Positions 4,959-11,489 of a stretch of 32,000 nucleotides of DNA are shown here, one piece after another. The position numbers and the translations under genes were made by a program. The DNA comes from Promethearchaeota archaeon (GTDB lineage: Archaea; Asgardarchaeota; Lokiarchaeia; Sigyniarchaeales; Promethearchaeaceae). A model generated the notes under the pieces. The model ran no database searches. It was not told where the DNA came from and saw nothing but the letters and a program-made list of their open reading frames with translations. The stretch spans positions 30,001 to 62,000 of the forward strand of contig JAFGBS010000028.1 of assembly GCA_016933055.1 (NCBI GenBank). Direction: 5' to 3'. The number at the start of each line of letters is the position of its first letter. Position 1 is the stretch's first letter.

Positions 4959-5840
4959 ATGAGCCTTTCAGATTGGGATTCTCAAAAATGGTTAAACAAA
5001 ATCGTACACGCTGCAAAAAAAGCATATGAATCCATCGAAGGGATTATTGGAACTCCCCTTGCTCGGCAGCGGATTCGAAAGAATCAACTTGGGGATACTA
5101 CTTTATGCATCGATAAAACAGCAGAAGATGTTATCTTAAGAGAAATGGGTAAAATCAATCAAAATATAAAAGTGATTACTGAAGAGACTGGAGAATTTTT
5201 CACACAACAAGAAACAGAGGAATTTTCAGATTATCTAGTAATCGATCCCATTGACGGAAGTCATAATGCTTCCTTTGGTTTTCCTATGGCTTGTATTTCC
5301 ATTGCACATGCGAAAGGTCCTCATTTAGATGATGTGGATGCTGGAGTGATAATGAATATTTTCTCGAAAGACATATTCACTGCCATAAAAGGAAAAGGAG
5401 CATTTAGAAACGGTTTTCCCATCCATGTTAATACAAGAAAAGTGCTTCCTAAATGCCTGTTTGGGATGAATTTATCAGTTGATGAGACTTTAGCAGACTT
5501 TGTAAACCGATATGCAAAATTCTTTGATAAATGCAAACCTATGCGCATCCGTGGGATAGGTACCGATGGATTCGCCTTAACTTTGGTAGGTTCGGGTCAA
5601 TTGGATTTATTTTTGAACCTGCAGAATAAAACGCGAACACTTGATATCGCAGCCGCTGCATTGATACTTAAAGAAGCTGGGGGTATATTAATCGATCCTT
5701 ATGGTAATGTGTTAAATTCCCTATTGGCATTGACAACACGGATTTCTTTTATTGGGATTTCTCCCACCTTAAAAAAACAATTGGATCCACTTATTCCAAT
5801 TTTGGCCGAATGCTATAAGAATCAACCTTCTATCCTCTAA
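4959..5840 (+). CDS. Inositol monophosphatase / archaeal FBPase-IMPase family protein
   Basis: DKTAED, ITEE, IDPIDGS and DIAAA metal-binding motifs. Confidence 0.88.
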   Translation: MSLSDWDSQKWLNKIVHAAKKAYESIEGIIGTPLARQRIRKNQLGDTTLCIDKTAEDVILREMGKINQNIKVITEETGEFFTQQETEEFSDYLVIDPIDGSHNASFGFPMACISIAHAKGPHLDDVDAGVIMNIFSKDIFTAIKGKGAFRNGFPIHVNTRKVLPKCLFGMNLSVDETLADFVNRYAKFFDKCKPMRIRGIGTDGFALTLVGSGQLDLFLNLQNKTRTLDIAAAALILKEAGGILIDPYGNVLNSLLALTTRISFIGISPTLKKQLDPLIPILAECYKNQPSIL

Positions 5841-5922
5841 TAGCATTCTAAGGTATAGTAGGATTTGGGAAAACTACCATATAATCTCAAACATAGTTCA
5901 CATTATTGGATGAAGTATTTCC

Positions 5923-6105
5923 TTAAATTCTATATTTTTTTTCTTCCGAAACTGTTGCTGCAACCCCTTCAGGTGTGTGTCTTTGTTCGTCTTTCATATT
6001 CTCATGGGTTTTTATCTTTTTATCAACTTGAGCCCTATCCCTTTTAATTTTTTTAATCCAAATTTTAAACCTATATTTAATTTTCTCCAAAAGCTTCATT
6101 TCCAT
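5923..6105 (-). CDS. Small basic hypothetical protein (60 aa)
   Basis: MEMKLLEKIKYRFKIWIKKIKRD... is the protein-like C-terminal half of ORF 5923-6279; ATG at 6105 or 6099. Confidence 0.5.
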   Translation of the reverse strand: MEMKLLEKIKYRFKIWIKKIKRDRAQVDKKIKTHENMKDEQRHTPEGVAATVSEEKKYRI

Positions 6106-6316
6106 AAAAAAAGGATTTTTGATGACTTTAACATAGAAATAGATGAAGCAATATTGAATTTTGAATAATCGACATCTGTACGGCTTAATCCAATTAAAAT
6201 TTGATCCATTTAATGTTAAACTATTGTAAAACAGCGTCAAACTCGTAAAATAGAAAATTTTACGATAAATCGGAATCAAATTCCGATTCTACTGTACGTA
6301 TAGATGTAGACTACTT

Positions 6317-6520
6317 AAGTAAGAAGTGCGGGCTGGTAGCACGTTGAAGAATGAACCAACAAAGCCGAATGCGTAGCATGAGGCAGATATGCGTAGTGTT
6401 TGATGGTACACCAAATGCATGGCACTTCGTACTATATACCCTCTATTCACCTATCTGATAGGATAGATGGATATCACGGAATAGATGTTGACTAATCAAA
6501 TTAGGTGCTATGGTATCCTA
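6317..6520 (+). ncRNA. Putative structured ncRNA, copy 1 of a two-copy motif (family unidentified)
   Basis: Shares AAGTAAGAAGTGCG (14/14), AGGCA-N2-3-ATGYGTAG, TTCGTACTRTATACC (14/15) and GGTAT with 9620-9802 in the same order. Several helices; G-U pairs form on the + strand. Confidence 0.55.
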
Positions 6521-6590
6521 TACTCTCTACTTTTAACTGGATTGTAATTTTGAAATTATTCTATAAACTACGCTAAAAGCCTGCTTTACT

Positions 6591-6762
6591 ATCCTAAAGA
6601 CAGTTACGTAGGTTTTAACGTAGGGGTGCCTATAACCCCGTTGGTCAATCGATCAACTCATTAGGGATTTTATTTCCGCTATTCGGTGGAGTTTACTGAT
6701 AGTTTTAAGTTAAAACGTTTACCTACTCACCGTAAAGGGTAGAATAGGTGTTGATTAGTAAA
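6591..6762 (+). ncRNA. Putative structured RNA module (four-way junction, hairpin, three-way junction)
   Basis: At least eight helices readable by eye; all wobble pairs are G-U on the + strand. Confidence 0.45.
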
Positions 6763-6952
6763 AAATGAATTTAAATGTTAAAAAATTCAGCGTTATATTT
6801 GCCGAATTACGTGAGGAAATACGTGAAAGTGAAATAAGAATTGAATAAAAAAGGAAAAATTTCCACCACGATATCAAAATAGATAATAATAAATTGTGTT
6901 GTTTCTTTTATCGCCCACATATTAACCAAAATTAATAAACGGAATAGGTAGA

Positions 6953-8575
6953 ATGAATCGTAAGAAGCTGATTGTTTTTCTGATCTGTAGTGGAGCATTT
7001 GTGAGTTGTGTGTTAACTATAAATTTATTACCCACCGGAATCACTAAATCTCTTAATAATTGTACTCTAACATCGGATGGCGTCAAAATCTATTATGATC
7101 TCTTTATACCGAAAGACGATACATCAACAAATAAGACGGGAATAATTCTCGGACATGGAATAATGGTCAATAAGCAATTTTTACGAACGATTGCTATGGA
7201 TTTAGCTAATCACGGATTTGTGGTTGCAGCCTTAGATTTTCGAGGTCATGGGAGAAGTGGGGGAGGTCTTGGTACTGGAAACATTACTACAGATATCATA
7301 GCAATTAAAAATGTCTTATCACTCCGTGGAGATATAAATATGTCCAATCTTGGATATTTAGGATATTCAATGGGTGGTGGTGCTGGTTTTCAACTTCTGA
7401 CAAGTGATTCAGACTTTCGTGCTATGGTAAGTCTAGCTTCTAGTGGTTCTAGTCCCTATAATCCACCTAATCTATTGATTTTGCACGGAAAGATAGACGA
7501 AGTAGTAAATTATCAGGATGTTTTACAGTATATAGAAAACCGCACGGGTATTTCTGCAGAAAATGTCCAACCGGGAATGATTTATGGCTCAATCACTGAT
7601 GGAAATGCTACTAAACTAATCCTTTCTAATACTGACCATCTATTTGCTCCTTATAGCCTTAATAATATACTTGAAACGCGAATATGGTTCCTTCAAACTC
7701 TAAAAAATGTAAATAATCCTCCCACTGAAATGATGAATTATGGTTTGCTGTTAGTTTTTGTATTATTGGCGACTTCTACTGGAATTTCGGCGTTTATTTT
7801 AGTAGCAGCATTTTTTGTAAAGAAATTATCCATTCAAAAATCTGAAAACGAGGAAGCACTCGCCATATTGGAAAAAATTTCTCAAAAAGATCTGCGAAAG
7901 CAAGTAATCAAAAGTTATTGGTATATAGTGGTTCCACTATCAATACCAGGTGTTCTCTTCGGAGCATTCTCATTTGTACTACCAATCTATTTTATGTCAT
8001 TAATTGTAATACTTCTCTCGGGCAATGCAGCAGCAAGTTTCTTTTATCTTTGGTATCTTCTAAAAAAGAAGCACAATGTGAAATTTGGTAGGTTCTTAGG
8101 GTACATATTCAGAAAATCCTCGATTAGAAATGTGATAATTGGAATTGGATTGGGTCTTATTTTATATGCAGTCTTAGGCTTGTCTATCGGATATATCTTT
8201 GGAATCGTGCCCGGAGTCAACAAATGGGGGTGGGCAGCATTTTATTGGATTTTTATGTTTTTGATAGTATTTTCCAACACTCTATTCTTTCGAACGATTT
8301 ATGGTGATCCTAATAAGACCTTTTCTGGTAAATTTAAGGAGTTGGGATTAGTTACGGCAATGAGCTTTATCCCTATAACCATAATCGTATTAATCTCGGT
8401 AGCAATCTTTCGAAGCCTCTTCAACATTCAATTTCTAATACCTATGTTCCCCTTGATTCTTCTCATAAACGCTATCGCTATTAAACTATACAATGTGAGC
8501 AGAGATATTGTGCTATCTTCTCTGCTTAACAGTGTAATGCTAACCATATTCGCTATTTCACTGAGTTTCTTATAA
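6953..8575 (+). CDS. Alpha/beta hydrolase with N-terminal signal/anchor and C-terminal multi-pass membrane domain
   Basis: HG oxyanion motif, DFRGHGRS, nucleophile elbow GYSMGG, candidate Asp (HGKIDEVV) and His (NTDH); about 8 C-terminal TM segments. Confidence 0.85.
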   Translation: MNRKKLIVFLICSGAFVSCVLTINLLPTGITKSLNNCTLTSDGVKIYYDLFIPKDDTSTNKTGIILGHGIMVNKQFLRTIAMDLANHGFVVAALDFRGHGRSGGGLGTGNITTDIIAIKNVLSLRGDINMSNLGYLGYSMGGGAGFQLLTSDSDFRAMVSLASSGSSPYNPPNLLILHGKIDEVVNYQDVLQYIENRTGISAENVQPGMIYGSITDGNATKLILSNTDHLFAPYSLNNILETRIWFLQTLKNVNNPPTEMMNYGLLLVFVLLATSTGISAFILVAAFFVKKLSIQKSENEEALAILEKISQKDLRKQVIKSYWYIVVPLSIPGVLFGAFSFVLPIYFMSLIVILLSGNAAASFFYLWYLLKKKHNVKFGRFLGYIFRKSSIRNVIIGIGLGLILYAVLGLSIGYIFGIVPGVNKWGWAAFYWIFMFLIVFSNTLFFRTIYGDPNKTFSGKFKELGLVTAMSFIPITIIVLISVAIFRSLFNIQFLIPMFPLILLINAIAIKLYNVSRDIVLSSLLNSVMLTIFAISLSFL

Positions 8576-8608
8576 AAGGAACAGACATAATTGAGGATTT
8601 CAATTAAT

Positions 8609-9382
8609 TTATTGATTTTCATCCGAAAGATGATTTTTCAAAAAAATCAGAGTATTAGTAATATAACTTTCCAAATATGTACCCTCAAAATCATGGGATG
8701 CACCCTCAATTAACTTCAGTTCATGATGGCTGTCATCCGGCATCATAGCGAAAGCATTTTTTATAGATTCTGGATTTACTGTTGTATCTTTGGTCCCTTG
8801 AATAATGAGTGTCGGCAAAGTAAACTCGCGAAGATTCTTACCAATATTTAAGGTTAAAACTTCATCCATGAATTTCTTACCAAATAATAATTTTGGACCT
8901 GCTCCTGTGTGGTTCATCTTCATGGGTTTTGAGGAAATGGCAAATTTAATTTTTCCTAAAATCTTTTGCAAAGGGGAAATAGAGTTCATTAAATCAAAAG
9001 CAGGGGACCAGAAAACTGCACAAAACCTGTTTGGGAGTGGCGAAAGTAACGAAATTAATCCTCCTAAACTAAGTCCCAAGGTAGCTATGTTATTGTAAGA
9101 CTGGGATTTTGCCCATTCCCACACATCTTTAAGATCAGTTTGAAGAAGCGAAAGCGAAATCGGTATACGGTTGTTCTCCCCAAATCCGGAAAAATCAAAT
9201 AATAGGACATCAAATCCTTCAGCTAAAAATATTTCAGCAGCAAAAGGAAATCGACCATGTTCAAAACGATCTCCTAATCCTCCGTGGCAAAATATTACCA
9301 GATTTGAGTTGTTTTTGCTGTATAATGTACAGTGCAATTCATAATTAGTTGGTTTATTAATCCTAAAGGTATCTACTTGCAT
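8609..9382 (-). CDS. Alpha/beta hydrolase (esterase/peptidase S9-like)
   Basis: FCHGGLG, FDFSGFGEN, GLSLGG, IQGTKDTTV, GASHDF catalytic-triad motifs. Confidence 0.88.
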   Translation of the reverse strand: MQVDTFRINKPTNYELHCTLYSKNNSNLVIFCHGGLGDRFEHGRFPFAAEIFLAEGFDVLLFDFSGFGENNRIPISLSLLQTDLKDVWEWAKSQSYNNIATLGLSLGGLISLLSPLPNRFCAVFWSPAFDLMNSISPLQKILGKIKFAISSKPMKMNHTGAGPKLLFGKKFMDEVLTLNIGKNLREFTLPTLIIQGTKDTTVNPESIKNAFAMMPDDSHHELKLIEGASHDFEGTYLESYITNTLIFLKNHLSDENQ

Positions 9383-9619
9383 ATCTCAATTCATCTGGAA
9401 ATTTATATGGAATTATTTATGGATAAGGATATAATCGTTTATATTTCTCTCCCATTGTTTGAGGAGATCTAATTTAATTTCGCCAACATCTATTCTATCC
9501 TGTCCAACGAGAAAGTTACCATTTTAAAGGAATACTATCGTAAAATAGGACGGAACGTATGGACCAGAATGAATTCAGCAAGTTATCGCCAATTTATTAC
9601 CGAACAGCAAATAGTAGTC

Positions 9620-9830
9620 AAGTAAGAAGTGCGAGTAGATAGCATGGTTAAGATTAACACGAGTGCTAGATAGAAAGGCAAAATGTGTAGCACGATTTAA
9701 ATAAAACGTATACAATCACATCTATCGGATGCAAATCGGCAGACTTTCGTACTGTATACCGTCTGTGTATCTACTCTTAGGACATGTGTACATCAAGGTA
9801 TAGGATTCGACTCCATACAACCATAGTAAC
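9620..9830 (+). ncRNA. Putative structured ncRNA, copy 2 of the two-copy motif
   Basis: Same ordered conserved blocks as 6317-6520 with a compensatory helix change; followed by T9 at 9849-9857. Confidence 0.55.
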
Positions 9831-9848
9831 CATTTTTAATGTTCTTTA

Positions 9849-9857
9849 TTTTTTTTT
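9849..9857 (+). terminator. Oligo-T terminator candidate after ncRNA copy 2
   Basis: T9 run within a T-rich stretch, with no annotated + strand CDS immediately upstream. Confidence 0.4.
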
Positions 9858-10046
9858 CTTGTGTATTGAATTGGATAAGCTTTTACTGCCAGATCTTTTA
9901 ATTTCTCGTTAGAAAATACCCTAAAAAATGATGGAGAGATGTATTTTATTAAATTCATCTAGTATAACGATAATTGAATCAAGCTTTAATCTCTATTTTG
10001 TACTCGCATCGACAATGTATAAATCCGAATGTGAATTAATCTTCTT

Positions 10047-11489
10047 ATGGGAAATTCTACAACAGCCGATGAAATTTGCTTGAGATGTAAAGGAGCTCGG
10101 ATGTTATGTGGAAAAACTCATTGTCCTCTACTTATAAAAAGTTCAATTCTTAAGTCAATCGCTCCTCTTGATATGTATAAAAAAATTCAGAGGGATAAAA
10201 TTATCTTTGGTGCCAGTCCTCCGGGTGTATTTGTGGGTCGTTTCGGTTATCCTCAAGTTAATATAGGTCCGATGATCCCCATAAATGAAGACCTTATTGA
10301 AAAAGCGGTGTTACTGAATCCAACTGTTACGACAAAAGATACTAGTGTGCTAGATATCTCTGAATTTTGGTATGGAAAATCCCAAGAAGAAATCATCACT
10401 TATCGAAGCTCTCTAGCTCGATCTAATTTTAAACTAAATGTATATTCCCCCTCTAAATCAACCGGTTTTAAAACTCTCGAAGAAGTAGAAGAGAAACTTA
10501 CCTTAAATGAAAGAAGATTATTGGATGCAAGTCAAGAATTGGCAATGTCAAAGATTTCTATAGACACTGAATCCAAAATCACCCGATTAATGCCTCAGTT
10601 GACCATGGATCCCCATTCTCCTCCCCTTGGACCCATATTTACTCCTGAAACTATTCGTATAGTAGATAATATAAAAGTCAATCCAAGAGTGGATTATGCA
10701 GTTAATGATAGTGATCTCAACGCAACGGATGCGATTTTCGACTATCTCTATAAACCCAATCTCACTTTGTTGAATGAAGATTATCATTCTCACAAACTCG
10801 TTCTTGGAACGGAAATGGTTCGACTGTTAAGTAGCGGATTACTGGGAACTAAAGAACGTCGAAAAATCGTGCCCACTCGCTGGGCTATCGCAGCTGTGGA
10901 CGATATCACAAGTAAGCGTCTAGCAAAAGAAATTCGTCACTATCCTGAAATCAATCAGTTCTATACCTTTCATGGTAAATATCTGGACAATAATTTCGTT
11001 ATTTTATTGATTCCAGGCCCGTGGTCATACGAAATGATGGAGTGTTGGGCAGCAAATTCTATATGGACTCAGACAGTCCCAGGAGTTCAAAATGCCGATA
11101 GTTTTCGAATACCAAAAATTATTCAAGACCACGAAATGGAAACGGGTCGTAAAAAATATGCTTCAAATATTACGGGAGCCTATTATGCAGCTAGGAAAGA
11201 AATCGTCGAATTTCTCTATCTCAATCATAAACAAGCTCGAGTAGTACTGTTCCGTGAGATAAAGGGGGGTTATTTAGTTCCTTTAGGCGTTTGGGTGATC
11301 AGAGAGACTGTACGCAATATTCTAAAGGATGGTTTTGGTTCTGATAGCATGAACAAACATGAAACTTTGGATGATGCCCTTATTCGAATTCGGGAAAATT
11401 TTTCCGTACCGTTAAAATATTGGCTGCAAGCAAGTAAATTTCTCAAAATAATCCGTACCCAAAGAACCTTGAATGAGTGGATGAAATAA
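10047..11489 (+). CDS. nreA: Archaeal Nre-family DNA repair protein with C-terminal PIP box
   Basis: N-terminal CxxCKG...CGxxxCP, SPPGVFVGRFGYP, VPTRWAIAAVDD, GAYYAAR, PLGVWVIRE; terminal QRTLNEWM PCNA-interaction motif. Confidence 0.9.
   Translation: MGNSTTADEICLRCKGARMLCGKTHCPLLIKSSILKSIAPLDMYKKIQRDKIIFGASPPGVFVGRFGYPQVNIGPMIPINEDLIEKAVLLNPTVTTKDTSVLDISEFWYGKSQEEIITYRSSLARSNFKLNVYSPSKSTGFKTLEEVEEKLTLNERRLLDASQELAMSKISIDTESKITRLMPQLTMDPHSPPLGPIFTPETIRIVDNIKVNPRVDYAVNDSDLNATDAIFDYLYKPNLTLLNEDYHSHKLVLGTEMVRLLSSGLLGTKERRKIVPTRWAIAAVDDITSKRLAKEIRHYPEINQFYTFHGKYLDNNFVILLIPGPWSYEMMECWAANSIWTQTVPGVQNADSFRIPKIIQDHEMETGRKKYASNITGAYYAARKEIVEFLYLNHKQARVVLFREIKGGYLVPLGVWVIRETVRNILKDGFGSDSMNKHETLDDALIRIRENFSVPLKYWLQASKFLKIIRTQRTLNEWMK

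Follow-up and report, generated by a model that had tools for sequence, protein, structure and literature searches.

The locus examined here raises the question of whether two similar noncoding stretches, about 3.3 kb apart in the genome of a Loki-type Promethearchaeota archaeon, encode a structured RNA or belong to some other class of repeat. The original prediction, made from the window (the whole 32,000-nucleotide stretch of DNA analyzed), described four sequence blocks that recur in the same order at both places, took them for an RNA motif present twice and bearing a compensatory base change, and proposed a new ncRNA family, cis-regulatory leader, ribozyme, or non-autonomous mobile RNA element. 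Our analysis favors, with a probability of about 0.83, the reading that both loci are copies of a MITE-type non-autonomous DNA transposon. The repeat family to which they belong has inverted-repeat ends, lies between genes irrespective of orientation, is flanked by TA-rich, palindrome-like sequence, and is patchily distributed; on this evidence, it represents an orphan MITE of an ordinary kind rather than a new RNA.

All of the strings quoted in the prediction are present where it placed them. The 14-nt block 1, AAGTAAGAAGTGCG, is identical at 6317–6330 and 9620–9633 and belongs to a 39-nt segment in which the loci share 77% identity; block 3, TTCGTACTRTATACC, was recovered at 6426–6440 and 9746–9760; and the two halves of the proposed covarying helix, ATGCG (6389–6393) and TGCAT (6416–6420), are likewise in place. 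The two loci are also homologous, with similarity far beyond chance. The family, however, is much larger than a pair. When the source genome (G000; 3.76 Mb, 36 contigs, 91% complete) was queried by BLAST with copy 1, 51 matches were returned at E up to 10, more than 15 of which cover window positions 6360–6502 at 68–87% identity. An nhmmer profile made from 15 copies and applied at an E cut-off of 0.01 gave 43 matches on 17 contigs, some 30 of which, at roughly 200 nt, are close to full length. The core of copy 1 matches the family at E 1.1e-50 (nhmmer) and, in a cmsearch with a covariance model made from 30 copies (R1), at 181.6 bits (E 1e-38). Copy 2 matches the profile of the other genomic copies across 9613–9814 (nhmmer, E 2.4e-10) and R1 end to end across 9595–9826 (cmsearch, 112 bits, E 2e-23). 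The features of the two copies and of an abutting element are as follows.

6166–6167, no strand: TA flanking the left end of copy 1 (from the sequence)
6168–6181, + strand: left terminal inverted repeat (TIR) of copy 1, ATCGACATCTGTAC, diverged from RTCAACATCTATNC (inverted match to 6479–6492)
6168–6492, + strand: whole MITE-like unit of copy 1, 325 bp, without an ORF (inter-copy similarity and TIRs)
6291–6507, + strand: conserved core of copy 1, the RNA candidate of the original prediction (full-length match to R1)
6364–6384, + strand: hairpin GCC-GA-AUGC-GUA-GCAU-GA-GGC with a symmetric tandem G.A loop (85% of cells paired across 30 copies)
6444–6473, + strand: hairpin UAUUCA/UGGAUA, 6444–6449 with 6468–6473 (88.6% of cells paired)
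6479–6492, + strand: right TIR of copy 1, GAATAGATGTTGAC (exact match to the family terminus)
6493–6494, no strand: TA common to copy 1 and the abutting element (from the sequence)
6495–6755, + strand: second, related MITE with right end GAATAGGTGTTGAT (BLAST copies and terminus listing)
9483–9495, + strand: left TIR of copy 2, CCAACATCTATTC (terminus search)
9483–9811, + strand: whole unit of copy 2, about 329 bp (left TIR, with core and right end from the model alignment)
9595–9826, + strand: core of copy 2 (full-length match to R1)
9797–9811, + strand: decayed right terminal repeat of copy 2, GGTATAGGATTCGAC, aligning with GGAATAGATGTTGAC of copy 1

The repeated unit extends well beyond the segment first noticed. 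Similarity between copies spans about −194 to +140 around position 6360 and reaches about 190–300 nt upstream of the start given in the prediction (6317); inverted ends found upstream of the core define copy 1 as the 325-bp unit at 6168–6492. Across the family, units are 325–430 bp long and bounded by imperfect TIRs, RTCAACATCTAT ... ATAGATGTTGAY, usually flanked by TA. An inverted TCAACATCTAT-type terminus lies 110–240 nt upstream of the core in nearly every copy, and in most copies the core ends with a ATAGATGTTGA-type right end. Copy 2 is an older, more decayed member of the family. The gap at 6168–6755 consists of two stacked elements with one TA in common; the second (6495–6755) has an interior unlike that of copy 1, termini of the same kind, and more than 20 partial BLAST copies in the source genome, mostly of its right-hand 60–75 nt. 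On the minus strand at 5923–6279, a listed 118-aa ORF without a Pfam match runs with its first third into the left part of copy 1; any real gene there more likely starts at the ATG near 6100, which would leave a very basic product of about 59 aa.

The placement of the copies is that of dispersed noncoding repeats. No ORF of at least 110 aa overlaps any copy, and the units have no coding capacity. All 33 long copies are intergenic; 17 of 32 share the orientation of the downstream gene and 15 oppose it, the 33rd having no downstream ORF. This random orientation argues against a cis-regulatory leader, one of the roles first proposed. Two contigs of the source genome end inside family copies (C2:1–83 and C18:27–92), and the repeats are thus one cause of breaks in the assembly. 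The family has subfamily structure, with conserved blocks alternating with swapped hairpin inserts.

The termini themselves are sharply overrepresented. The exact terminus TCAACAYCTAT occurs 67 times in the source genome, against 3.6 expected by chance. Flanking these 67 termini, T stands at −3 and A at −2 in 50 each, and R at −1 in 60; the dinucleotide TA occupies −3/−2 in 50 of the 67, a 2-bp repeat that lies inside a conserved flank and is therefore ambiguous between a target-site duplication, a target preference, and a longer TIR. The outer flank as a whole is conserved as TTTT-n-A-Y-T-A-R (for example, at window positions 6160–6168 and 6492–6500) and mirrors the tip of the element, which produces the palindrome TTGAYTARTCAA; 19 instances are present where 3.5 are expected, nearly all at element ends. 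Either the terminal repeat runs on into this conserved flank, or the flank is a target site of narrowly defined sequence that resembles the element itself. Three inherited variants of the right terminal repeat occur, each only a loose match to the left one. Conservation is higher in interior blocks, AAAGCCGAATGCGTAGCATGA and TTCGTACTATATACC among them, than in the right repeat, which hints that the interior is under some constraint. TIRs of this kind also bound many other small repeats of the genome, a result close in spirit to the match to an IS end that the prediction had named as evidence against itself.

Alignment of the family also changes the reading of the four blocks. Block 2 (6381–6396 paired with 9676–9690) is out of register, whether the copies are aligned by MAFFT or by the model. 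The string ATGCGTAG occurs twice in copy 1, at 6369–6376 and 6389–6396, and it is the former that corresponds to ATGTGTAG of copy 2; the surrounding copy 2 sequence AAAGGCAAAATGTGTAGCACGA (9674–9695) aligns with AAAGCCGAATGCGTAGCATGA of copy 1 (6362–6382) and not with 6381–6396. The claimed compensatory change from C-G to U-A in the AUGCG/UGCAU helix therefore compares non-homologous positions, and only 38% of cells are paired there. Block 4 is similarly misassigned: GGTAT at 9797 falls within the decayed right repeat of copy 2 and aligns with GGAAT at 6478–6482, the start of the right TIR of copy 1, while GGTAT at 6512 belongs to the neighboring, different element. The helix between blocks 1 and 3 does not hold as a conserved stem, with 66% of cells paired across 30 copies and four positions unpaired in about 20 of the 30; its long GAAGUGC/GCACUUC form is limited to the subfamily of copy 1. 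The closing helix AUACCC/GGGUAU, paired in 77% of cells, shows no covariation, falls below shuffled controls, and was rejected. These "stems" are partly the inverted motifs of the element and partly chance pairings of the subfamily of copy 1.

Several known RNA classes were considered for the two gaps. None of the 4227 models of Rfam 15 matched anywhere in the window at its gathering threshold, in agreement with the statement that the related noncoding elements lack an Rfam match; the sub-threshold matches in both gaps are noise at E 1–10 that lie outside the conserved core or barely overlap it. ARAGORN found no tRNA or split tRNA in the window. A group II intron, suggested by a GUGCG 5′ end, was rejected, as the downstream ORFs encode alpha/beta hydrolases and Nre rather than reverse transcriptases, and no intron model of Rfam matched. 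No sequencing run that contains this DNA is catalogued as RNA, and the two metatranscriptomes of the source study contained no contigs from this stretch; neither observation carries weight for or against expression.

A small-RNA gene carried by the repeat is the rival that deserves most attention, and we consider it improbable. The approximately 200-nt core would be transcribed on the plus strand from an internal TATA-like box, TTTAAATA, and would fold into a tandem-GA hairpin and a 3′ hairpin; its product might act as a cofactor or regulator of the mobilizing enzyme of the element, or form a host-domesticated sRNA family with variable inserts. The box lies about 25 nt before the core in many copies, at a fixed distance in most, and could be an archaeal TATA box; copy 1, however, lacks the consensus, and most copies have, within the putative RNA, a T5 run that should stop transcription in archaea. 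Only two short hairpins, 6364–6384 and 6444–6473, are kept family-wide (85–89% of cells). Both include a few both-side changes (in the first, e.g., GGC/GCC in copy L033 and in the copy of genome G030), and their G-U pairs are correct only on the plus strand. The second, which in copy 1 encloses a variable CTATC/GATAG insert, ranked first in an all-against-all column scan; beyond this single 6-bp helix, that scan found nothing longer than 5 bp and no long-range helix. RNAalifold returned no consensus pairs from 30 copies. Covariation over the whole structure is slightly above shuffles, yet within the range that relatedness alone can give. Relative to dinucleotide shuffles, the MFE z score is −0.64 for copy 1 and +0.52 for copy 2, with means over 33 copies of −0.55 on the plus strand and −0.58 on the minus strand; neither strand thus folds better than shuffled controls, and folding shows no bias toward one strand. 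The variable hairpins consist in large part of one hexamer, GGATAG/CTATCC, in inverted pairs. Enriched 6.6-fold in the elements, this hexamer is similar to the inner portion of the terminal repeat, and such pairs would fit repeated DNA sites for protein binding at least as well as RNA stems. The better conservation of the interior blocks than of the right terminal repeat could speak for an RNA, and a narrower version, in which the conserved 200-nt interior is a transcribed sRNA with its own TATA box and two hairpins that serves as cofactor for a mobilizing enzyme of unrecognized kind, would explain both that pattern and the missing known transposase if true; we regard it as less probable still. 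The evidence does not support a structured RNA bearing a compensatory change, nor, consequently, a new ncRNA, ribozyme, or leader; of the four alternatives originally offered, only the non-autonomous mobile element comes close.

The taxonomic distribution is also that of a mobile element. The search for further copies by covariance model, suggested alongside the prediction, found the family in three genomes. AMARA_1 (G001), the only other genome of the genus, contains two copies, and G030, from another family of the order, contains a single complete copy (L058 1501–1905; G030:C32:22294–22698) with its own degenerate inverted ends and flanks unrelated to those in the source genome; horizontal spread or a mis-binned contig are possible explanations for this stray copy. 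Model searches found no copies among the remaining 118 sampled genomes of the order, nor among 151 genomes drawn from across the phylum, a combined scope of about 254 other Asgard genomes. A conserved 19-mer queried against the genome contig collection matched AMARA_1 and otherwise gave only chance matches; the terminus pattern gave two chance matches in metagenome contigs and 24 in viral contigs, the latter single, unpaired, and unrelated, with no viral match to a core 17-mer. So narrow and patchy a spread, essentially one genus plus one stray copy, is the pattern of a mobile element; wider occurrence would be expected of a conserved functional RNA.

The closest known counterparts are probably the TA-flanked prokaryotic MITEs derived from IS630/Tc1-mariner-type elements, such as Sulfolobus SM1 and Neisseria Correia/NEMIS. 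Like these, the units are about 0.3–0.4 kb long, lack an ORF, have TIRs and a TA at both ends, and occur as tens of dispersed intergenic copies with subfamilies and internal fold potential. They differ in showing no sequence similarity to any named element that could be compared, in an unusually extended flank consensus (TTTT-n-A-Y-TA) that mirrors the tip of the element itself, in the loose match of the three right-repeat variants to the left repeat, and in the absence of the transposases of that group: neither PF13358 (DDE_3, IS630) nor PF01359 (mariner) was found in the source genome, the congener, or G030, the latter being a weak result because this model is silent in control genomes as well. 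PF01609 (DDE_Tnp_1) is represented in the source genome by one decayed fragment on a 7.7-kb contig. Pairs of inverted termini 0.15–4 kb apart enclose few ORFs, none of them a clear transposase-sized candidate (by length, not by domain scan). With no partner transposase found, the family is best called an orphan. Identical multi-copy IS elements are often lost from metagenome-assembled genomes. Resemblances to structured RNAs are more superficial. The family shares with Rfam 15 families its noncoding nature, conserved blocks split by variable hairpin inserts, and a tandem-GA internal loop, but not a gathering-score match or a consensus structure. The omega RNA of TnpB/IscB and the bridge RNA of IS110 are transposon-encoded guide RNAs, and the family resembles them as a noncoding, partly structured segment at a transposon end; both were rejected, as the source genome has no TnpB domain (PF07282) and no recombinase ORF adjoins any copy. 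The family also has classical TIRs, which to our knowledge IS200/605 and IS110 lack.

For the MITE-type transposon that we favor, we infer a transposase and a cut-and-paste step. A transposase supplied in trans would bind the terminal repeats, and perhaps also the internal GGATAG/CTATCC motifs, and would insert the element at a TA inside an AT-rich, partly palindromic site (TTTTnAY-TA-R...). The units would have spread by cut-and-paste transposition, and the enzyme would now be absent from the assembled source genome or not recognizable there. Common descent of the copies, with mosaicism among subfamilies of the element, would then account for the conserved blocks and the swapped hairpin inserts. 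Recognition of the family has value for annotation: it fills many intergenic gaps of a Loki-type genome, breaks its assembly, and mimics novel structured RNAs by eye, so that naming it prevents the same false lead. It is of modest further interest as a family without an identifiable transposase, and as one that clusters at variable regions where the gene blocks of congeners differ, which bears on Asgard genome rearrangement.

One such region is the surrounding 4.2 kb, which involves the following genes.

4959–5840: inositol-monophosphatase-family (IMPase) gene
6953–8575, + strand: alpha/beta-hydrolase gene
8609–9382, − strand: alpha/beta-hydrolase gene
10047–11489: Nre gene

The IMPase and Nre genes are adjacent in AMARA_1, with about 58 nt between them, and 4.2 kb apart in the source genome, where an extra block (about 5843–10015) contains a small ORF, copy 1, the second MITE, the two hydrolase genes, and copy 2. 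AMARA_1 has the two hydrolase genes at a different place, about 3 kb away from other family copies. This arrangement, together with the excess of TTGAYTARTCAA at element ends, could be taken to mean that the units are recombination or cassette-boundary modules, their palindromic TTGAY-TA-RTCAA sites serving a site-specific recombinase that shuffles gene blocks such as the two hydrolases between copy 1 and copy 2. We consider this very unlikely, the most doubtful of the readings weighed here: the edges of the block do not fall at element ends but about 320 nt beyond copy 1 and about 200 nt beyond copy 2, copies 1 and 2 have diverged too far for homologous exchange, most copies in the genome are solitary, between unrelated genes, and in either orientation, and no recombinase is linked to them. 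A composite transposon formed by copy 1 and copy 2 was rejected on the same position of the block boundaries, off the element ends. We read the block as repeats accumulating in a rearranging region. Among 12 other genomes of the taxonomic family, none has the IMPase–Nre adjacency, which is seen in the congener only and so leaves no outgroup with which to polarize the block. No base-level empty site was recovered; short contigs from a 2017 hot-spring metagenome of a different study (X2) are identical to parts of 5100–10172, both MITE copies included, so that a nearly identical strain is present in a second sample as well.
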